A stretch of DNA of 22,150 bases from a virus (lineage: Duplodnaviria; Heunggongvirae; Uroviricota; Caudoviricetes): IMG/VR virus record IMGVR_UViG_2617270955_000009; one strand, given 5' to 3'. How positions within the stretch are numbered: the first letter of the stretch is position 1; every line of letters begins with the position of its first letter. Positions 6,705-22,150 of this stretch are shown here, piece by piece. The notes below the pieces were generated by a model, which saw only the letters and a program-made list of their open reading frames with translations, was not told the origin of the DNA and searched no databases. Both the position numbers and the translations under genes were made by a program.

Positions 6705-6729
6705 AAAGACGGGCAATCAGCCCGTCTTT
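6705..6729 (-). terminator. Rho-independent terminator hairpin (minus-strand oriented)
   Basis: AAAGACGGG-caatcag-CCCGTCTTT, a 9-bp stem with 7-nt loop, followed on the minus strand by the T-rich tract TCTTTATCTGTTGTTTC. Confidence 0.6.
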
Positions 6730-6777
6730 AAATCACAAATTTTGACAGTTTTTGATTTGCATTCGAGAATAACAGTT

Positions 6778-6800
6778 CGGGGGAGAAAAAACCTCCCCCG
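6778..6800 (-). terminator. GC-rich hairpin immediately 3' of the cargo operon (probable terminator)
   Basis: C-GGGGGAG-aaaaaac-CTCCCCC-G, an 8-bp G/C stem 15 nt after the TAA stop at 6815-6817; the downstream minus-strand tract (GAACTGTTATTCTC) is only moderately U-rich. Confidence 0.45.
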
Positions 6801-6814
6801 CCCACGTAACTTGC

Positions 6815-7864
6815 TTAACTACATGAATCAATGATGTTTTTCACAAGCTTATTTATTTCAGATTCATTAGTGCCAAATTCACCCGCTTTAAAATTAATAC
6901 CTCGCGCTGCAAGATTTCTTTTTATTTTACTTACTTCACTCAGCATAAAGTCATAATTTAACGTTTTTTCTTTAATGCCCTTTGAATATATTACAGGGAA
7001 GGCTTTCATTAATGCCGCATATCCTGTGAGTTTACTTAAATAATATTCCCTTGGTGTATTCCACTCAACTGGATAGACATTGCTAATAGCATTAAAATAA
7101 TTCAATATTATTTTTTGAATTACAGCGTCATTCTCTTCGATAAAATAATCGCGGAATATACACTGATTATTTGGCGTTAATGGCAGATTCATTTTTAACA
7201 TTCTTGCATCATCATCAGGTTTTTTTGAAATATGTTGGATAAGATATTTAATGAAAGTGCTTTGTGATAATGATGCATTATCTTGGTTTATTTCCTTTTT
7301 CCCAAGCATTTTTAGCTTTTTATAAAAAGGGGAATCAGGATTACTGTTTATTCCTCTCGCGATTTCGTGGCATGTTTTTTGTGGACTCCTGCGTTCTGCA
7401 AGCGAAAATAAATCATATACAATTGATGGATTTACACGAGTTTGTTTACTATTAATAATTGAGAAAACATAGGCTTTTTCTTCATCAGTAAGATCAAACA
7501 TTAAAACAACAGGTAGTTCAAAAAGTTTAGCATTAGAGGAATTTTTAATTCCCCATAATCTGTGTTGACCATCGATAACATCACCTATAACCACTTCAGA
7601 CTCAAAGTAAAAATAGGTATCATCCATTTTTAAATTGGATGAATCATCGACGGAAATTATGATCGGCGTTGGAAAAGTCGCATCCGGCTCACTAGTGTAC
7701 TTTGCGATTTCTGAAACTCTTGATGATGAAATATCCCTTTGCACACCAAATTCGAAATCTCTGCGACGATCAACTCTAACTATATCGAGCAAGTCAATGG
7801 CTCTTATTGATGTTAAATAGAAAGTACCGATTGGTTGATTAACTTCAATATATTTCAACTTCAT
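6815..7864 (-). CDS. DGQHR-domain protein (DndB-like, ParB/sulfiredoxin-fold), 349 aa; accessory cargo gene B
   Basis: Exact DGQHR motif at residues 98-102 (nt 7559-7573, VIDGQHRLWG), preceded by the family-typical N-terminal QPIGTFYLTSIRAIDLL element. AT-rich codon usage. GGAG Shine-Dalgarno 8-11 nt upstream. Start ATG overlaps the stop of the upstream membrane gene (ATGA at 7861-7864). Confidence 0.8.
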   Translation of the reverse strand: MKLKYIEVNQPIGTFYLTSIRAIDLLDIVRVDRRRDFEFGVQRDISSSRVSEIAKYTSEPDATFPTPIIISVDDSSNLKMDDTYFYFESEVVIGDVIDGQHRLWGIKNSSNAKLFELPVVLMFDLTDEEKAYVFSIINSKQTRVNPSIVYDLFSLAERRSPQKTCHEIARGINSNPDSPFYKKLKMLGKKEINQDNASLSQSTFIKYLIQHISKKPDDDARMLKMNLPLTPNNQCIFRDYFIEENDAVIQKIILNYFNAISNVYPVEWNTPREYYLSKLTGYAALMKAFPVIYSKGIKEKTLNYDFMLSEVSKIKRNLAARGINFKAGEFGTNESEINKLVKNIIDSCS

Positions 7865-8460
7865 ATCATAACTCCTTTACCATCATCAGTTACTTCATTG
7901 GTTGCCATTGTCTGATCTATAACTATTGCATCTTCTTTTTCTATATAACTTTCATCATTTATATCTGTATGTGCAGTAGCGTTAAGTTTTAATACGCCAA
8001 ATGTATAGCATACTAAGACTATAGAAATAACATAAATTATAGGTTGAGTTAAACCGAATGTTAAATCATTAGAATTTGGTAGGATTAAATCCTTTGATTG
8101 CGTAGCAGCGTATATTATACCTGATAATTGTAATAAAATAATCAATAATATTATTGATATGATTTTTATTGTTTTAAATTCAAGTTTTGAACTAAAAAAA
8201 GTTACAAACATAGGCCCAAGGGCAGAGGCTATTAATGCAATGGAAAATGTGTAAAAACTTCCTGACGAACCTTCTATGTAAATAGATTGATCTAGTGGTA
8301 TTGAATGTGAATAATATCTTATGATTATATTTGCAATAATCCCCATTTGCCCACAAACAACTGTAAAAACGATCCAAATAAAAAACTCTCTTTTGTTTTT
8401 TCTTATCGCATCGAATGGATAGGAAAGGGATTTCTTTAATATTTGCCAGTCTTTACTCAT
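7861..8460 (-). CDS. Small integral membrane protein, four predicted TM helices, acidic C-terminal tail (199 aa from ATG; 202 aa if the GTG at 8467-8469 is used); accessory cargo gene A
   Basis: Hydrophobic segments FFIWIVFTVVCGQMGIIANIII, FYTFSIALIASALGPMFVTFF, IKIISIILLIILLQLSGIIYAA and TQPIIYVISIVLVCYTFGVL; C-terminal DINDESYIEKEDAIVIDQTMATNEVTDDGKG. The ORF-track start at 8469 is a GTG; the first ATG is at 8458-8460 with AAGAG upstream. Confidence 0.7.
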   Translation of the reverse strand: MSKDWQILKKSLSYPFDAIRKNKREFFIWIVFTVVCGQMGIIANIIIRYYSHSIPLDQSIYIEGSSGSFYTFSIALIASALGPMFVTFFSSKLEFKTIKIISIILLIILLQLSGIIYAATQSKDLILPNSNDLTFGLTQPIIYVISIVLVCYTFGVLKLNATAHTDINDESYIEKEDAIVIDQTMATNEVTDDGKGVMI

Positions 8461-8646
8461 GTTATGCACTCTTTATTTAAACTTATCAACAATATGTAAC
8501 TATCAATTAATAACCGTTTACTCTTTTCAAATAATAAAATTATAATCATCAAAAAAATCGACATTATAATTAGACAACATTTTTAACACTAAGTGATACC
8601 TGACTCATGTCTCCAGACCCTAAAACCGCTTGCATAATTTAGAATG

Positions 8647-8675
8647 ATAATACTACCTTATAGTAGGCTTGTGAA
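8647..8675 (-). promoter_or_regulatory. Candidate sigma70-type promoter for the cargo operon (TTCACA-17 bp-TATTAT)
   Basis: Read from the minus strand of the AT-rich intergenic region; reasonable -35/-10 spacing but one of several possible matches in AT-rich DNA, with a long (about 180 nt) leader. Confidence 0.2.
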
Positions 8676-8864
8676 CTTATATAGCCTGAGTCAAGTAATT
8701 AATAAATCACTTATTTCGTTTTTTTTGCATTTGGTCGCTGTGATTTTTTCATAAACAAACTTACAATGATGTCAGCAATGTCTGCTCTTGGCACAGAGCG
8801 GACTGTCAGATTAGTTTTTACTCTGTGCCATAGATGTATAAACTCACATCAGAGCTTATACAAT

Positions 8865-9443
8865 TTATTGTGGCATTTCAGGCCATTCTATATCCGGAGC
8901 ATCTTCCGGCTGAATGCGATTCAGTAGCACACGGTATTTTTTCCAGTGTGTCAGGCTTAACTTTTCTTCCTCAGTTGCCATATCCAAATCGACAGCATCC
9001 TGCAGCGTGGCAATGATTTCACCTGCATATGCAATCTGCTCTTTCTTCTGAGACTCAGCCGCTCTGACAAGTGCATCACGCTCTGCATTCTCATCATTCA
9101 CCCACGCATTTCCGTTCCATTTCTGATAATCCCCCTCCGGGGAAATGGCTGTCACGTCTGGAGATAATGCGCCAAGTTCAGAAATATAAATGGCTGCTCC
9201 CGTTTTCGTTTCGTATACGGTCTTTCCGCGATGGTCTTCCATCAACTCCCATTTCATTTCATCTGCATTGAAAACGGCTGCATAACCAGCCGGTATATCA
9301 GGCGGCGCAATATCTGTACTGTTTGCAGGCAAACCTGTATACGGAGGAATATATGCATCACTTTCGCCAATAAATTCATTGGTTCCATCAAGTAAATTGA
9401 AAACGCGGATAGTTTGTGCTTCTGCACTCATTCTGAAAGCCAT
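8865..9443 (-). CDS. G: Tail fibre assembly protein (Tfa / gpG-like chaperone), 192 aa
   Basis: 192-aa ORF immediately 3' of tail fibre H with a Tfa-typical conserved C-terminus ([29 protein letters not shown]). Confidence 0.85.
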
Positions 9444-12061
9444 TATGCAAGCCTCACAATATAGTTAAATGCGATGTTTTTGACGGTGTTTTCGGTATTA
9501 CCTGTAGCATTAACGGTAATAGAGTGCCCGTGTGAGCCAATAGCAACCGTGTGTGAATGTGCACCAATACCAACCGTATGATTATGTGCGCCAATATCTA
9601 CCGTGTGGGCATGATTCCCGGCAGCTCCTGATGTGCCATTAAACGATGGGTTGTCAAAGCCTGTTTTACCGGTTTCACCATTAGTATTGGCATTCCCTCT
9701 GTAAATGGTATGTGTATGGTTACCAGTGGTATTAGTGGTTTTTGTTCCGTAGTTAAACGTACTGACTGTCTTCGTCCCGTAATCAAATGAACTGGTCGTT
9801 TTCGTCCCTAAATCCGTATTTGACGCACTGGCACTGTGAGTATGCGATTTAATCCCGTCCTGTTCCTGTGACAATACGGCACGCCCACTGGCGGGTTTGC
9901 CCTTGATTGTCCAGCCGCGCATATCTGGAATAACACCAGAAGGATAGACAATAGCCAGTTTCGGATATGCAGCCTTATCAAACGTCTGCCCCTGCATAAT
10001 TGCATAGCCTGCAGGTGGTGTATCTGATGGCCACGGCAGCGGAACACCAGGCGGAAACGCTTCAATATCTTTCGTCCCGTCAAAGGTTACGCCGTTAATT
10101 GTCCTTGCCGTTTTCAGCTTTGTTGCTGTAGCAGCATTGCCGGACAGTTCGCCTGAAAGACCGGCGCTGAAGGTTTGTTTCGCCGCCCATGTCTGGGCTT
10201 CGTCAATAATTGGCACACGTCTTGTGGTGATCGTGCGACTTCCCGGATTTCCTGAAATACGCACCATAAAAAAGCGGTAGTTCGCTTTACTTACAGTGCT
10301 GCGCCATACATGCATTGAGCGCCCCGCACCGGAATCATCACTCGGACCAACTGAGATGTTTATCAGGTTGCCATCAATGACGCCCCAGTCCATACCTTCG
10401 GGAATGTTGGTCATGTTATCAAGCCGAACGGTTATCAGACTGCCCGGCACAAAGTCGTAGGTCTGCCAGTCCAGGCTGGAGAGTTTTGCCACTGCACCGC
10501 CGATACCCAGATTCAGGGGAAGTGAATACGAGGTGTAGACTTCACGCCATTCGCTCCACGAGCTGCCGGTATAGACGCGCTCAAACGTGCGACCTTTAAG
10601 GGTTGCACCTGTTCCGGCAGTTGTATAACGCTGCCATACGTTAACACCATCAAAGCGCCTCAACACTTCCAGAATCCCGAGGACTGTCACGCCGTTTCCG
10701 TCCAGTATTGGACCGTTGGTCGCTTTACCTGTAACGCTGTAAATACCTGGTGAAGTCACCTCATTCAAATCCCCGTCGTAATAACGACTCTCTGACTGAT
10801 GACCGACTCTTAACCACGGTTCCCACTGTGGATTTGATGCATCCCAGCTTGCCGCAAGGCAGCGGACATACATATTTCCACGGCGAGTGGTATAACGTTG
10901 CGTTCTTCCATAATTCCCGCCTTCGAGGATCTCAAGCATCCCCTGAGCAAAGCCGCCTTCCTCTGGATAATTGCGTTCATATGAAGCTATAGCCGAGCTA
11001 CTGTTACGCCATAAACCAAGATGCTCGGCGGCTCCAAGCGTATTCAGGTCTATAGTCGTACTCAAAGGGCGGGTAGCAGATTGAGTGTGACGCCATACGC
11101 CCCACGGACCATCAGTGCCATTCCACTTATTGGCGAGTTTACGCATGTAAACATTGCCGTCTCTCGTGGTAAAGCGTTGCGTACCTGCAAAATTGCCGGC
11201 AGCAAAAACCTCAAGCACACCGACAGCATTATCTTCCGGGAAATTTTTCTCCAGTGTTGAGTTAGTTGAGGTAGCTTTAGACCAGATCCCCAGATAAGCC
11301 TTAACGGGACCAAATGTATTCAGGTCGGCATCAACCGGCATTTCGCCATTGTTTTTCATAAACGTCAGACTGGTAACGCCAACATTGTCCAGAAAAGCTG
11401 ATTTATCCTGGATATCTGCACCATTCTGATTTTTCGCCAGACGTGAATTTGCGTTGTCATTTGCTGCCTTGACCGCTTTTGGCGTTGCCGCCAATGACTC
11501 ACTGGTGCTGTTTGTTGCACTGCTTAACTGAGTAAAACCTTTTTCTGTCAGCGTGGCGTCAGGATGGCGGCGGGACTGCTCATGTTCTGCGATTTTGTCA
11601 TCGACGTAATCCTGCGTCGCCATCACTGTGCTGGCATCAATACTCAGCTCAACGGACGCCACGTTACTGACAATAATAACCATGCGGCAGGTCTGCGCAC
11701 GCCCGGAGCCTTCAGCGAGTTCAGGCTTATAGCTTTCTGCCATGTTGGCGACCGCAATCAGTGTTCCGGCATCGTCATACAGACCAAGCTCACGCATCCA
11801 GAAGCCGCCCACTTCGGGCGGTACAACCAGTTCAGCCACGATATAGTTTTTATTCTTATTATCCACGCTGACTTTATTCAGAGCGTGACGCCAGACCTCA
11901 TGCACCAGTTTCGTCTGACCGGCATCCGGCACCGGCAATTTGCCATTACCGTCACCCACGGCCATTGCAGACAGGTTTACTTTTTTCCCGCCGGGGACAG
12001 TGGCGGCTGCCAGCTTCGCGGCTCCGGCAGTAGTGATAACGGTTTTAAATTTCGTGCTCAT
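9443..12061 (-). CDS. H: Tail fibre protein H, 872 aa (longer than the 669 aa of P2)
   Basis: N-terminus ([21 protein letters not shown]...) is P2 gpH-like; the central part has three ~70-aa internal repeats; the C-terminus has His-x-His repeats ([36 protein letters not shown]). Confidence 0.88.
9515..9630. repeat. Tandem ~27-bp repeats within the 3' end of H, encoding the histidine-rich (HxH) repeat
   Basis: Plus-strand units resembling caaccgtgtgtgaatgtgcaccaatac / caaccgtatgattatgtgcgccaatat / ctaccgtgtgggcatgattcccggc; the period of 27 nt equals the 9-aa protein repeat. Confidence 0.6.
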
Positions 12062-12071
12062 TGTTTCTCAC

Positions 12072-12602
12072 TTATCCGGGATAAACAGTAATAACATCAC
12101 CATCACAGACCACACCGCCTGTATACAGATAGCCGGGAATGTCCTGGATAATGTTCAGGCCGATAAGGTGGCGACTTGCGGGTTTGGCATCGGCAATCAG
12201 CCGTTCCATTTCCAGATACATTTCCTCTGTGATACCGCTTTCCAGCACACCGATATCAAGACGAAAGGTTCCGGCCGGGTCGTTTGTCTCCCACCATTCC
12301 TTTACGTTAATGAGATAGCCGAGCGGCTCCACCACACGCCGGATTGCGCCGACAGTGCCTTTATGACAGTGGATGAAATAGGCATCGCGGATAACGGCGC
12401 GTTTTGTCGCTTCCGGCCACTTTTCATCCCACCTGTCGACCGAAAACGCCCACGCCAGCCACGGCAGCAGATTTGCCGGGCAGGTGTCCGGGTTCCACAG
12501 CTCACGAATACTGACCGGCGTTTTTTCAATTTCCGCACAGGCTTTTGCGGCGGCGACCTCAAGCGGTGATGAGCCGGTCGGCAGCAGGCGCGAATCACTC
12601 AT
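12072..12602 (-). CDS. I: Baseplate/tail protein I, 176 aa
   Basis: 176-aa ORF between J and H; length and synteny match P2 gpI. Confidence 0.85.
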   Translation of the reverse strand: MSDSRLLPTGSSPLEVAAAKACAEIEKTPVSIRELWNPDTCPANLLPWLAWAFSVDRWDEKWPEATKRAVIRDAYFIHCHKGTVGAIRRVVEPLGYLINVKEWWETNDPAGTFRLDIGVLESGITEEMYLEMERLIADAKPASRHLIGLNIIQDIPGYLYTGGVVCDGDVITVYPG

Positions 12603-18767: not shown

Positions 18768-19784
18768 TTACGCTCCCGGCTCTGCGGTCGCTTTAGCCAG
18801 TGTGGAGAAATCACCGACCTTAATTTTTTCCACCAGACAACCGGCGGCGTAGTCTTCCACCACGTAATCAATGTTCATTGACTCGTAGTTCTCCACGCGG
18901 TCGAGTTTCGGGTTTTCCTCAATCACGCGGCGATGGCTGTCATCCATGTAGTAGATGGACAGGTTTTCCAGCTTTGTGATGAGCATCGCATCCGCCGGGA
19001 AGTACGGGACGCGTACCGCCGGCAGGTTACCGATGCGTTTCTGGCTGATGATGACGTCAGCGGCCAGCATTTCGCTGTTGTCCTGCTCCTTGTTGACGAT
19101 GGGAAAATACTTGTCCGCCAGTAGCTGACGTCCCACAATCACCACAAGGTCAGGGTCTTCCTGATACCACGGCTCAATCAGGTTGTTGGTCGCATCCATC
19201 ACCAGTGCGTCAAGGCTGGCATAATCACCGCCCTTACCCACGCGGATAACCTCAGAGATGGTGTGCCCTTCCTCGTCAGTGACCTTGCTCATCACGCGCG
19301 CCGGTGCTTCATTGCGGTATTTCTGCAGCCAGCCGACCGCCACATCCTGTAGCATCGGATTACTGCTGCGGTCAGAGGTTTCGGCACGCCTCACGCCGTT
19401 AAAACCGGCCATGATTAAATCAAGGGACTGGCGTTTGATAATGGCGTTACGGATACGGAGCTGGAAATCCTGATAACGCGCCCACAGGTCAAGCGTTTTG
19501 TAGCGGATATAAAAATCGAAGTTAATCTGGTCGCATTCGTACTTGTTTGACGCCAGCTTCGAGAAGTCCTTCGGCTGACGCTCGGTGCCACCGGCGGTGT
19601 CGCTGGTGCTGGCGATGGAGCCGGTGACACCAATACCAATTTTTTCCCCTTTCATTTCGCTGACCGGCACAATGTTGATGCGGGTCAGAAAGTCAGAGGA
19701 CTCCTGCATGGTGTTCATCAGGGTCTGGGTGACCGACGGTTCAACGGTGAATTTTTTCGACACATCACCGGTGCGTATTTTCAT
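18768..19784 (-). pseudogene. N: Major capsid protein gene N, 5'-truncated by IS insertion (338 codons retained of about 357)
   Basis: ORF is P2 gpN-like from GDVSKKFTVEPSVTQTLMNTMQESSDF onward. The in-frame upstream sequence hits a stop within IS-type repeat sequence (GAGTGATCTCC), and the ATG at 19782-19784 is fortuitous at the junction. Confidence 0.8.
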
Positions 19785-19842
19785 GAAAGGAGATCACTCA
19801 ATAACTTCCATCGAGATCGGGTAATAACATTTGAACAGATCG

Positions 19843-19909
19843 CTGAATAACATCGATGGAGATCACTTTTGACTCATTTTGTTATTCAGTGATCTCCATC
19901 AATGTTATT
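19843..19909. repeat. Imperfect inverted repeat in the IS left terminus
   Basis: CTGAATAACATCGATGGAGATCACT (19843-19867) versus AGTGATCTCCATCAATGTTATT (19888-19909), 1 mismatch in 22 bp; related GGAGATCACTCAATAAC copy at 19789-19805. Confidence 0.7.
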
Positions 19910-19964
19910 GGAACTTCACAGGTGTGTTGATCTGTATCTTTTGCCATTCCGGTAAAGGATACCT

Positions 19965-21506
19965 ATGCCAACAGTTCCAATTTCTATGAGAAAACTTAAA
20001 GAAATTCTTAGGCTTAAATACGGTGTTGGACTCAGCCATCGACAAATTGGTCGTAGTCTTGCAATCTCCCCTTCCGTTGTATCCAGATATGCTAATCGGG
20101 CGGCTCAACTTGGCATAAAGCAGTGGCCCTTACCTACAGGATGGGATGATACAAAACTAAAACATGCGTTCCTTCAGACCCAGGTTAAGATGAAGAAGCA
20201 CTCTCTGCCTGACTGGGCTACAGTACACCGGGAACTGCGTAATAAATGCGTGACGCTGCAGCTACTCTGGGAAGAATACTGTGAGCGTAATCCAGGCGGT
20301 TTTTACAGCTATAACCATTACTGCCGGATGTACCGTGAATGGCTCAAAACCACTTCACCATCAATGCGTCAGGTACATAAAGCTGGCGAAAAACTTTTCG
20401 TTGATTACTGTGGACCTACCGTTGGCGTTACCGACCCTGAGACCGGAGAAATAAGAACTGCTCAGGTCATCGTAGCTGTTCTCGGGGCATCAAGTTACAC
20501 ATGGGCAGAGGCCACCTGGTCTCAGCAGCTTGAAGACTGGGTGATGAGTCATGTTCGCTGCTTCCAGTGGTTGGGTGGCGTTCCTGAACTTGTTGTTCCG
20601 GACAATCTGAAAAGCGCCACATCCAGGGCATGTAAGTATGATCCTGACGTTAACCCTACCTACCAGCAGATGCTTGAGCATTATAATGTCGCAGTTTTGC
20701 CTGCGCGGCCACGTAAACCGAAAGATAAAGCCAAAGCTGAAGTTGGCGTTCAGGTTGTTGAACGCTGGATCATGGCCCGAATCAGGCATGAGATCTTCTA
20801 CAGCCTTGCATCGCTTAATCAGCGCATTCGGGAGTTGCTGGAAAGACTGAATAACAAAATAATGCAGAAGTTGGGTTATTCACGTGCAGAACTCTTCATC
20901 CAGCTTGATAAACCCGCACTGAAGCCTCTTCCTGAAGCCAGTTACAGTTACACCCTGGTGAAGAAAGTCAGAGTTCATGCCGATTACCACGTGGAAATCG
21001 ACAAACATTACTACTCGGTTCCATGTTCGCTGTTAGGCCAGCAACTGGAAGCATGGATCTCCGGAGAACTGGTAAGACTCTTCAATCAGGGGCAGGAGGT
21101 TGCTGTGCACCCGCGCAAGCGTACTTATGGCTACAGTACCCGCAACGAGCACATGCCTGAAGCTCATCGACAGCATGCCACCTGGACGCCAGAGCGTCTT
21201 CTGGAATGGGCGGGGCACATAGGCAGTGAAACTCATAGTTATGTGCTTCATATACTGAACTCTCGTCCACATCCGGAACAAAGCTATCGCTTCTGCCTTG
21301 GACTCCTGAACCTTCATAAAAAATACAGTAAAGCCAGACTTAATGCAGCATGTGCAAGAGCTCTGAAAACAAAGGTATGGCGTCTGTCAGGTATTAAATC
21401 GATCCTGGAAAAAGGTCTGGATAAACAACCTGTTCAGGATCCAAAACCAGATCTGTTATCCACGATGGAACACGAAAACGTACGCGGCAGTGAGTATTAC
21501 CACTGA
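19965..21506 (+). CDS. istA: IS21-family transposase IstA, 513 aa
   Basis: 513-aa ORF with an N-terminal helix-turn-helix region (LSHRQIGRSLAISPSVVSRY) and a central integrase-like region; followed 12 nt later by an IstB-type gene. Confidence 0.85.
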   Translation: MPTVPISMRKLKEILRLKYGVGLSHRQIGRSLAISPSVVSRYANRAAQLGIKQWPLPTGWDDTKLKHAFLQTQVKMKKHSLPDWATVHRELRNKCVTLQLLWEEYCERNPGGFYSYNHYCRMYREWLKTTSPSMRQVHKAGEKLFVDYCGPTVGVTDPETGEIRTAQVIVAVLGASSYTWAEATWSQQLEDWVMSHVRCFQWLGGVPELVVPDNLKSATSRACKYDPDVNPTYQQMLEHYNVAVLPARPRKPKDKAKAEVGVQVVERWIMARIRHEIFYSLASLNQRIRELLERLNNKIMQKLGYSRAELFIQLDKPALKPLPEASYSYTLVKKVRVHADYHVEIDKHYYSVPCSLLGQQLEAWISGELVRLFNQGQEVAVHPRKRTYGYSTRNEHMPEAHRQHATWTPERLLEWAGHIGSETHSYVLHILNSRPHPEQSYRFCLGLLNLHKKYSKARLNAACARALKTKVWRLSGIKSILEKGLDKQPVQDPKPDLLSTMEHENVRGSEYYH

Positions 21507-21517
21507 TACGGGATCCA

Positions 21518-22150
21518 ATGATGAATCATCTTTACGAACAACTGACCGCACTTAAACTCACCGGCTTCCGTGATGCGCTTAAAAAGCAACTTGCTCAACC
21601 GGGCACATACCAGGAGCTGGGCTTCGAAGAACGCCTGTCATTACTGACAGCAGAAGAACTAACCTGCCGTGAAAACAGGAAGGCAGAGCGTCTGATCAAA
21701 CATGCACGGTTCAGACTTAATGCTGAGTTATCAAAGCTGGATTATCGTAACAATAGAGGGCTGGACAGGGCCCTCATCCGTTCACTCAGTCAGGGAAACT
21801 GGTTAACCCTGAAACAAAATATTTTACTGACCGGGGCCACCGGCAGCGGTAAAACGTTCCTGGCATGTGCACTTGGTCATAATGCCTGCCGACAGGGATA
21901 CAAGGTCTACTATTATCGCCTTAAAGCGCTGATGGAACAGTGCTATCAGGGGCATGCTGATGGAAGATACAGCAAACTTTTGACCAGGCTGAATAATAGC
22001 GATCTGCTGCTTCTGGATGACTGGGGGCTGGAACCTCTCTCATCAGAACAGCGTAGCGACCTGCTGGAAATAGTGGATCTGATGTACCAACGAGGCTCAA
22101 TCATCGTAGTGAGCCAGTTGCCGGTGGAAAACTGGTACAAAATGATCGGA
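21518..22150 (+). CDS. istB: IS21-family ATP-binding helper protein IstB (3'-partial, runs off window)
   Basis: My own translation from ATG 21518: MMNHLYEQLTALKLTGF... with Walker A GATGSGKT and Walker B LLLLDDWG; no stop before the window end. Confidence 0.8.
   Translation, partial: MMNHLYEQLTALKLTGFRDALKKQLAQPGTYQELGFEERLSLLTAEELTCRENRKAERLIKHARFRLNAELSKLDYRNNRGLDRALIRSLSQGNWLTLKQNILLTGATGSGKTFLACALGHNACRQGYKVYYYRLKALMEQCYQGHADGRYSKLLTRLNNSDLLLLDDWGLEPLSSEQRSDLLEIVDLMYQRGSIIVVSQLPVENWYKMIG

Follow-up and report, generated by a model that had tools for sequence, protein, structure and literature searches.

Background

Phage P2 encodes its tail fibre, gpH (669 aa; NC_001895), between gene I and the assembly gene, and gpH itself has neither an array of knob domains nor a tip with His-x-His (HxH) motifs. 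The needle of T4 gp37 holds seven axial iron sites, and residues of its tip bind OmpC and LPS (PMC6957217); iron sites formed by HxH motifs have been described in PMC6957217 and PMC6116203. The R1 and R2 pyocin fibres of Pseudomonas aeruginosa (PDB 6CL5/6CL6 and 6CU2) have tandem Knob1-Knob2 domains, a shaft that holds an HxH iron site, and a lectin-like foot as their C-terminal domain. Knob2 is the most variable region of these fibres and has been proposed to determine the killing spectrum; in the K1F tailspike (endosialidase), sialic acid is bound by a knob-like domain (PMC6116203). Chimeras of P2 and S16 fibres (P2:S16) have been built artificially to retarget P2 (PMC9594776). A close described relative of the fibre studied here belongs to Peduovirus P24A7b (LR595887 / NC_049390; 874 aa), which shares its architecture and gene order and has a TfaP/TfaQ-type assembly protein.

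Here, we followed up a first-pass annotation, made from the letters of the DNA, of a caudoviricete sequence from IMG/VR (IMGVR_UViG_2617270955_000009; a window of 22,150 nucleotides, whose numbering is used throughout). The open reading frame at 9443..12061 (872 aa, intact) very probably specifies the tail fibre with which a P2-like (Peduovirus-type) Escherichia coli prophage binds its receptor, as a mosaic built on a P2-type base. It is a real but ordinary modular mosaic with its own Tfa chaperone, and all of its parts, as well as their combination, are already present in sequenced phages; it thus offers a clean example, is of little import beyond that, and settles no standing question. Relatives were sampled as 67 complete fibre genes from IMG/VR viral contigs, and tips were compared across 14 distinct sequences. 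The fibre gene, all of its features and the chaperone gene lie on the (-) strand.

Results and discussion

An intact fibre gene in a defective prophage

The gene occupies the position of P2 gene H, between a gpI homologue (12072-12602; Pfam Tail_P2_I) and the Tfa gene, and was identified from the open reading frame list, three Pfam families (PF12571, PF03406, and PF07484) and PHROG tail-fibre families. At the nucleotide level, it is 99.8% identical to the gene for the RefSeq 'phage tail protein' WP_001530528.1 in NZ_OZ040994. The order of the surrounding genes, as read from open reading frames, Pfam matches, the annotation of that 99.8%-identical locus and the P2 gene map, is that of the P2 late operon, V-W-J-I-H-(G/Tfa), with the genes for sheath and tube coming next.

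The prophage that carries the gene is defective. The IS21-family element ISEc12 is found at 19772-22150, and ~618 bp beside it are absent relative to the NZ_OZ040994 prophage. With them, the major capsid gene has lost its 5' end and the gpO scaffold gene a part of its sequence, and the fibre may never serve on an infectious virion in this genome. P24A7b, in contrast, is an isolated phage. Such lesions would suit a decaying remnant of a dead prophage without current function, but we regard this account of the fibre gene as improbable, given that its reading frame of 872 codons is unbroken and that the tail genes on either side are full-length open reading frames. Moreover, 14 complete genomes among the matches listed carry the gene at 99.2-99.8% identity, 148 complete E. 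coli genomes match it over 80% or more of its length, the same 872-aa architecture recurs in 14 of the 67 fibre genes sampled from viral contigs, and the isolated P24A7b shares it. The ISEc12 copy is also 100% identical to one in another strain, which points to a recent event.

A P2-type attachment module at the N-terminus

Residues 1-151 (11609..12061) form a P2-type N-terminal tail-collar/fibre domain that matches the full length of the PF12571 profile (E = 6.6e-58) and is 84% identical to P2 gpH. It is followed by a Phage_fiber_2 repeat, a rod segment common to P2 H and Mu S, at residues 170-211 (11429..11554; PF03406, E = 1.5e-20), and residues 167-233 match structures of the Mu tail fibre S (5YVQ and 8JU3). 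By homology with P2, residues 1-151 would attach the fibre to the baseplate, as a homotrimer.

The alignment with gpH covers residues 1-207 at 85% identity, and no alignment between the two proteins was found anywhere beyond residue 207. The first-pass annotation had described a P2 gpH-like N-terminus on a protein about 200 aa longer than gpH, and both statements hold (872 versus 669 aa, i.e., 203 aa extra), as does its expectation that the C-terminal region would not align end to end with gpH. Its description of the protein as an extended gpH fits the length but misses the nature of the difference, as unrelated modules stand in place of the P2 sequence from about residue 207 onwards.

A row of four knob-type domains

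Residues 241-620 comprise a row of beta domains whose fold, from two monomer structure predictions of the knob region, is shared with Knob1 and Knob2 of the R1/R2 pyocin fibres. Self-BLAST with the entire fibre protein returned the identity match alone and no internal repeat, whereas comparison of segment against segment aligned K1 (residues 241-330; 11072..11341) with K2 (residues 334-423; 10793..11062) at 42.5% identity over 80 aa (BLASTP, E = 4.5e-24); K2 also has a profile match at E of about 1e-46 and a fold match. These two copies look like the product of a more recent duplication. The third, diverged copy, K3 (residues 427-512; 10526..10783), reached only E = 0.004 against a single profile, unimproved after iterating the K1/K2 profile over 120 homologues, so that profile-profile comparison was needed; hhalign of K3 with the profiles of K1 and K2 then gave a probability of 90% and E = 1.6-1.9e-6 over 68 aligned columns. 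K3 retains DLN, G-LEV, QRYTT, and W..W, and has neither LGxW nor NFPE/NYPE. The fourth, K4 (residues about 520-620; 10202..10504), was recognised by fold alone, with matches of moderate Z (5.7-7.8), and is unrelated in sequence to K1-K3 (hhalign probability 0.1%).

Neither Pfam nor NCBIfam produced a match in residues 212-662, although near-identical proteins are labelled 'pyocin knob domain-containing' by NCBI, presumably from a model absent from the scanned libraries. Because no NCBIfam family matched, the knob assignment rests on folds of moderate Z together with the source annotations of homologues. With the pyocin fibres themselves, which have two knobs against four here and end in the lectin-like foot rather than a gp37-type needle, sequence identity is only 8-19%. 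Another counterpart of the array is found in the distal fibre of the T-even Shigella phage JK23 ('large distal tail fiber subunit', P0070), with the same K1-K2-K3-K4 order and 60% identity over 95% of residues 232-650, but with another N-terminus and another, HxH-free C-terminus.

The three internal repeats proposed in the first-pass annotation are thus borne out by BLASTP (K1/K2) and hhalign (K3), with adjustments: the unit is about 90 aa rather than ~70, the repeats span nt 10526-11341 rather than roughly 10620-11300, and of the elements said to be shared (LGxW, NFPE/NYPE, QRFTTR/QRYTTR, and W...W), the first two do not extend to K3. They had not been recognised as pyocin-type knob domains, and the copy detectable by fold only had been missed. 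The variation in repeat number that it had proposed looking for among P2-like prophages is not seen in close relatives, where the number of units is constant (K1-K2-K3-K4 in 64 of 67); three-unit arrays (K1-K3-K4) are confined to the distant Atlantibacter S74-type fibres.

A gp37-type tip with six HxH motifs

A conserved linker (residues 621-662; 10076..10201), which includes a stretch of 23 residues, leads from the knobs into the tip and holds the recombination junction, placed at about residues 651-656 (about nt 10095-10110). Residues 663-872 align with the entire crystallised fragment of the T4 gp37 tip (2XGF chain residues 23-242; phmmer E = 4.9e-76), including the collar and both needle strands. 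The collar covers residues 663-737 (9851..10075; PF07484 Collar at residues 672-719, E = 5.6e-10). The outgoing needle strand, residues 738-784 (9710..9850), was delimited by alignment to 2XGF and the 14 distinct tips and contains 10-aa units (30 residues) as well as HxH at 740/742 and 782/784. The hypervariable block, residues 785-814 (9620..9709), is the positional equivalent of the T4 gp37 head (tip) domain and would supply the receptor-contacting loops. The return strand, residues 815-850 (9512..9619), consists of four 9-aa GxHxH(T/S)(V/I)xI units, three filling 27 residues and the other reading GSHGHSITV, with HxH at 817/819, 826/828, 835/837, and 844/846. The last 22 residues, 851-872 (9446..9511), are nearly identical to the C-terminus of T4 gp37.

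The six HxH motifs align with T4 iron-binding motifs 1 and 3-7, the four return-strand units corresponding to motifs 4-7, and are invariant in the 14 distinct related tips. The alignment indicates that these units are homologous, beyond mere similarity, to the iron-coordinating motifs of gp37, in line with the first-pass annotation, which had described HxH repeats in fibre tips as known metal-coordinating motifs in other phages. Metal binding and an intertwined trimeric needle would be expected from this homology: the chain is predicted to extend along the trimer axis and then double back, with six HxH per chain holding six metal (iron) ions buried at the three-fold axis. Since T4 motif 2 and a 5-residue insert in the return strand are absent, the needle is predicted to be one metal layer shorter, and its geometry would differ in detail from that of T4. 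The fibre further differs from gp37 in its head (tip) loops, which are unrelated, and in the rest of the fibre, which is P2-type and not T4-type.

At the DNA level, the return strand is encoded by a 27-bp tandem repeat at 9537-9607 (Tandem Repeats Finder; 2.6 copies, 79% matches, score 86). The repeat had been noted before, at about 9520-9625, close to the four units at the protein level (nt 9512-9619), and attributed to the last ~70 residues; the His-rich region in fact extends over ~110 residues, as it includes the motifs at 740/742 and 782/784 upstream. A head-to-tail array of this kind, together with the occurrence of related tips with 6 or 7 HxH motifs, could suggest a slippage-prone contingency array that varies fibre length or specificity, which we consider very improbable. 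The units are just 79% identical in DNA, and all 14 distinct tips, like T4, keep the four C-terminal units. The two HxH counts among related tips differ elsewhere, by T4 motif 2 plus the 5-residue return-strand insert, and come with a different hypervariable block, so that block replacement and not slippage alters the number. Slippage of the 27-bp repeat was rejected on these grounds.

Where the fibre might bind its host

Among the 14 tips, residues 785-814 are the main variable segment, with at least four sequence variants between an invariant collar and invariant His boxes. These loops, at the far end of the needle, are the predicted site of contact with the host receptor (LPS or a protein of the outer membrane) and would thereby set host range. 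The knobs lengthen the fibre in the working model, and one may ask whether they do anything else. That they are mere structural spacers, with host specificity residing wholly in the gp37-type tip, is possible but less likely than not: the hypervariable block is flanked by conserved His boxes, receptor-contacting residues of T4 map to the tip (PMC6957217), and the K1-K2-K3-K4 order holds in nearly all close relatives irrespective of the tip.

The comparison with P24A7b argues against this. The two fibres are 79% identical overall and 98% at the N-terminus, and the needle with its hypervariable block is 100% and the collar 93% identical, yet the knobs are only 44-70% identical, with K1 and K3 at 44%. 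A conserved tip beside diverged knobs is the pattern expected if knob surfaces themselves diversify, and the roles of pyocin Knob2 and of the K1F domain described in PMC6116203 likewise speak against a mere spacer. By analogy with R-type pyocins, the knobs may add a secondary carbohydrate-binding surface. The stronger proposal, that the four-knob array is a second, independently evolving receptor-binding surface (e.g., for O-antigen or LPS sugars) alongside the tip, is one we put forward tentatively and consider rather unlikely; if true, the fibre of P2-like phages would have two binding sites, either of which could be swapped. Less likely still, the full-length tail, lysis, and fibre open reading frames of the IS-inactivated prophage might be kept as a phage-tail-like bacteriocin whose killing spectrum the fibre would set.

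Module exchange and the Tfa cassette

The fibre gene was very probably put together by recombination from three exchangeable modules: the attachment domain and short rod (residues 1 to about 230), which are predicted to anchor the homotrimer on the baseplate, the knob row, and the tip. The attachment domain, the knob array, and the tip with Tfa each have different closest relatives; the modules swap independently, in agreement with the earlier view of a recombination-prone receptor-binding cassette. Phage 10W illustrates one such exchange: up to the linker its identity is 88-100%, whereas beyond it the two are unrelated and 10W carries a P2-like tip past residue about 650, with identity dropping from 90% (linker) to 16% (collar). 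The matches that Megablast gave with 10W, P24C9, and phages like them end at query position 653 or 668. This natural P2-type fibre shows three well-defined swap points, namely after the attachment domain, at a conserved 19-residue stretch of the linker, and at the His boxes flanking 785-814. A natural chimera of P2 with a T4 gp37-type tip and a lambda-type Tfa also exists in this gene, resembling in kind the artificial P2:S16 chimeras, and its junctions could inform efforts to engineer the host range of P2-based particles or of tailocins.

The chaperone gene (8865..9443; 192 aa) has a start codon that overlaps the fibre stop at 9443. Its product belongs to the tail-fibre assembly family of lambda Tfa and P2 gpG (PF02413, Caudo_TAP, E = 2.3e-39; PHROG 105) and has the features of Tfa proteins, i.e., a Caudo_TAP domain, a location directly downstream of the fibre gene, a conserved C-terminal half, and a variable N-terminal half; against P2 gpG, only the C-terminal half (residues 95-192) aligns, at 38%. 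In T4, by comparison, the chaperone next to gp37 is gp38. Tfa is very probably the cognate folding chaperone and moves with the tip as a single cassette. Tip and Tfa are inherited together (nucleotide identity of the pair, 96% in P24A7b and 84% in STYP1), and the likeness extends to the stf/tfa junction of lambda (Tfa family PF02413), with 79% DNA identity to the 3' end of the fibre gene and the start of Tfa, although lambda Stf is siphovirus-borne and has another N-terminal part.

The fibre gene is P2-type only in its attachment region

The fibre gene (ORF 9443-12061, minus strand) is intact, encodes 872 aa and lies in a P2-type late operon, with homologues of gpV, gpW, gpJ and gpI upstream (gpI: Tail_P2_I, E = 2e-54) and, downstream, the gene of the 192-aa tail-fibre assembly protein Tfa (8865-9443, minus strand; PF02413, E = 2e-39), which overlaps the fibre stop codon. 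Over its full length it is 99.8% identical to a gene of E. coli NZ_OZ040994 that RefSeq annotates as "phage tail protein" and whose neighbours are annotated as a P2-like prophage, and at least 80% of the gene was found in 148 of 5,426 complete E. coli genomes. The first-pass annotation had described an extended gpH, with a P2 gpH-like N-terminus and about 200 additional residues. Both the N-terminal likeness (residues 1-207, 85% identity) and the excess length (203 aa; 872 versus 669) were borne out, but P2 gpH could not be aligned beyond residues 1-207, and the sequence past the attachment region differs from gpH throughout. Judged by alignment, the fibre is not an extension of gpH but a different sequence beyond that region.

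A gp37-type tip with a HxH repeat

Residues 663-872, the tip, matched the entire crystallized T4 gp37 tip fragment (2XGF, E = 4.9e-76; phmmer, all PDB sequences), with a Pfam Collar domain at residues 672-719. This T4 fragment consists of a collar and then a needle, along whose axis seven iron ions are each coordinated by HxH motifs from the three chains; OmpC and LPS are bound by distal-tip residues (PMC6957217; PMC6116203). The C-terminal 27-bp tandem HxH repeat with 9-aa units, read earlier from the sequence, was recovered by Tandem Repeats Finder (period 27 at 9537-9607, score 86) as four units at residues 815-850 (one being GSHGHSITV), with further HxH motifs at 740/742 and 782/784; its proposed link to metal-coordinating fibre motifs agrees with the match to the iron-holding gp37, and the fibre is likewise predicted to bind metal. 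The fibre motifs align with T4 motifs 1 and 3-7. The fibre lacks both motif 2, present on the T4 outgoing strand, and a 5-residue insert found on the T4 return strand, and these matching deletions on both strands suggest that its needle would be one metal layer shorter than that of T4. The outgoing strand (window 9710-9850, residues 752-781) has its own 10-aa periodicity, against 9 aa on the return strand; in relatives with seven HxH motifs and in T4, the middle 10-aa unit of this strand carries HxH instead.

The survey of variation drew on IMG/VR contigs and comprised 67 complete fibre genes with N-terminal domains at least 97% identical to that of the window fibre, a sample biased to close relatives. 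Gp37-type tips with 6 or 7 HxH motifs occurred in 31 of the 67 and unrelated tips without HxH motifs in 33, the exact 872-aa form being found in 14. When 14 distinct gp37-type tips were aligned with T4, the collar was almost invariant, the His boxes invariant and the C-terminus near-identical, while residues 785-814, between the second and third HxH of the window fibre and at the position of the T4 head domain, formed a hypervariable block with at least four unrelated variants. The HxH array might be read as a contingency repeat changing by slippage, but this is not supported: in the tip alignment, the difference between 6 and 7 motifs goes together with a different hypervariable block, which argues for block replacement rather than slippage of the 27-bp unit.

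Central knob repeats

Three central repeats of ~70 aa had been proposed, and three units (K1-K3, nt 10526-11341) were supported, although each spans about 90 aa. K1 (241-330) and K2 (334-423) share 42.5% identity over 80 aa (E = 4.5e-24; segment-versus-segment BLASTP). K3 (427-512) was weak with a simple profile (E = 0.004); when a separate profile was made for each unit from its homologues, K3 aligned nearly end-to-end with the other units (hhalign probability 90%, E about 2e-6, 68 columns). All units share DLN, G-LEV, QRYTT and W..W elements, but K3 lacks the LGxW and NFPE/NYPE motifs named earlier. No model in the Pfam and NCBIfam libraries scanned matched these repeats. Their match list comprised Acinetobacter phage AS12 gp42 tailspike (10.5), phi812 receptor-binding protein (9.9), R2-type pyocin fibre 6CU2 (9.6), R2 pyocin fibre 6CL6 (8.7), phi11 gp45 (8.2), Pa193 gp47 (8.1), T4 gp34 (6.9) and phage K gp144 (6.9); several of these are in the list of Buth et al. 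for the "Knob" fold of R1/R2 pyocin fibres (PMC6116203), and many near-identical proteins are labelled "pyocin knob domain-containing" by NCBI. A comparison of repeat number among P2-like relatives, also proposed earlier, found K1-K2-K3-K4 (K4 being a fourth knob-like domain recognizable by fold) in 64 of the 67 sampled fibres.

The same four-knob array occurs at 60% identity in the T-even distal fibre of Shigella phage JK23, so that, by sequence comparison, the knob array also transfers between phage families. Atlantibacter fibres P0117-P0120 carry a three-unit array, K1-K3-K4, fused to a Peptidase_S74 intramolecular-chaperone C-terminus rather than a Tfa-dependent tip; the knob cassette thus occurs with each of the two known strategies of fibre folding, and the K1-K3-K4 arrangement suggests that K1/K2 arose by a later tandem duplication.

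A mosaic fibre

That P2-like, lambda-like and T-even phages exchange fibre modules horizontally has long been established. P2-gp37 chimeras have already been engineered (PMC9594776). Phage 10W (919 aa) is identical to our fibre in the attachment domain (1-160; 100%), close in the rod (161-240; 88%), K1-K4 (95-99%) and linker (90%), and dissimilar in the collar (16%) and the needle and hypervariable block (17-24%), having a P2-like ...YINGTWYNVAQV end. Peduovirus P24A7b (874 aa) gives 98%, 86%, 44-70%, 95%, 93% and 100% for the same regions in order, while P2 gpH (669 aa) matches the attachment domain (84%) and rod (52%) and is unrelated from the knobs onward. These per-domain identities show three independently exchanging modules. 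DNA matches to 10W-like phages end at window nt about 10095-10110 (residues about 651-656), within the conserved linker. Tip and Tfa are inherited together: as a unit, their P24A7b counterparts are 96% identical and those of Salmonella phage STYP1 84% identical, and a stretch spanning the end of H and the start of Tfa is 79% identical to the lambda stf/tfa junction. P2 gpG aligns only to the C-terminal half of Tfa (38%). In work on Mu S-Tfa (PDB 5YVQ), a variable N-terminal half reportedly binds the cognate tip while the C-terminal half is conserved, and by analogy the half-by-half match to gpG fits this division.

Proposed function

Homology, domain limits, fold class, HxH conservation and mosaicism were all observed; the reading with the best support is a receptor-binding fibre, probably homotrimeric. 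Its P2-type N-terminus would anchor it to the baseplate, the knobs would form a beaded shaft that may contribute a sugar-binding surface, and the gp37-type needle, stabilized by six predicted axial metal sites, would present the 785-814 loops to a putative host receptor, with Tfa ensuring correct C-terminal trimerization. That the knobs are pure spacers is plausible; however, where needle and hypervariable block are identical, K1 and K3 still diverge strongly from one protein to another, which argues that knob surfaces diversify too. All fibre components belong to described families, the architecture recurs in many prophages and in P24A7b, an isolated phage that has been classified, and RefSeq already contains the protein; the initial observation was correct, and what it describes is a mosaic tail fibre of an ordinary kind. 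Any novelty would at most lie in a functional two-site fibre (knobs and tip) or in the tail of this defective prophage having been domesticated.

Prophage state and cargo

Window 19772-22150 is the IS21-family element ISEc12 (istA 19965-21506, plus strand), 100% identical to the copy interrupting gpO in NZ_OZ040994; a 23-bp tandem repeat (19789-19864) sits in the IS end. Relative to NZ_OZ040994, about 618 bp adjoining ISEc12 are absent. This loss takes away ~70 nt at the start of the major capsid gene, together with what remained of the C-terminal part of the gpO scaffold gene, and very probably leaves the prophage incapable of head formation. This state suggests that the fibre gene could be a dead remnant, but the fibre and tail-gene ORFs are still full-length and the same fibre form is found in many genomes and viral contigs.

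A two-gene cargo insert (window 6725-8863; ORFs 6815-7864 and 7861-8469, minus strand) occupies the P2 Z/fun hotspot, between the tail sheath and Tfa genes. Its products are a 349-aa DGQHR/DndB-like protein (Pfam DndB, E = 5e-11; PADLOC DpdB, E = 1e-16) and a 202-aa protein without a family match, probably membrane-spanning given its long hydrophobic stretches, and the insert may serve anti-phage defence. It is absent from the otherwise near-identical NZ_OZ040994 prophage, and of 5,426 complete E. coli genomes only 3 contain it in full; in other genomes the Z/fun site is occupied by different cargo, e.g., a DUF3800 protein.
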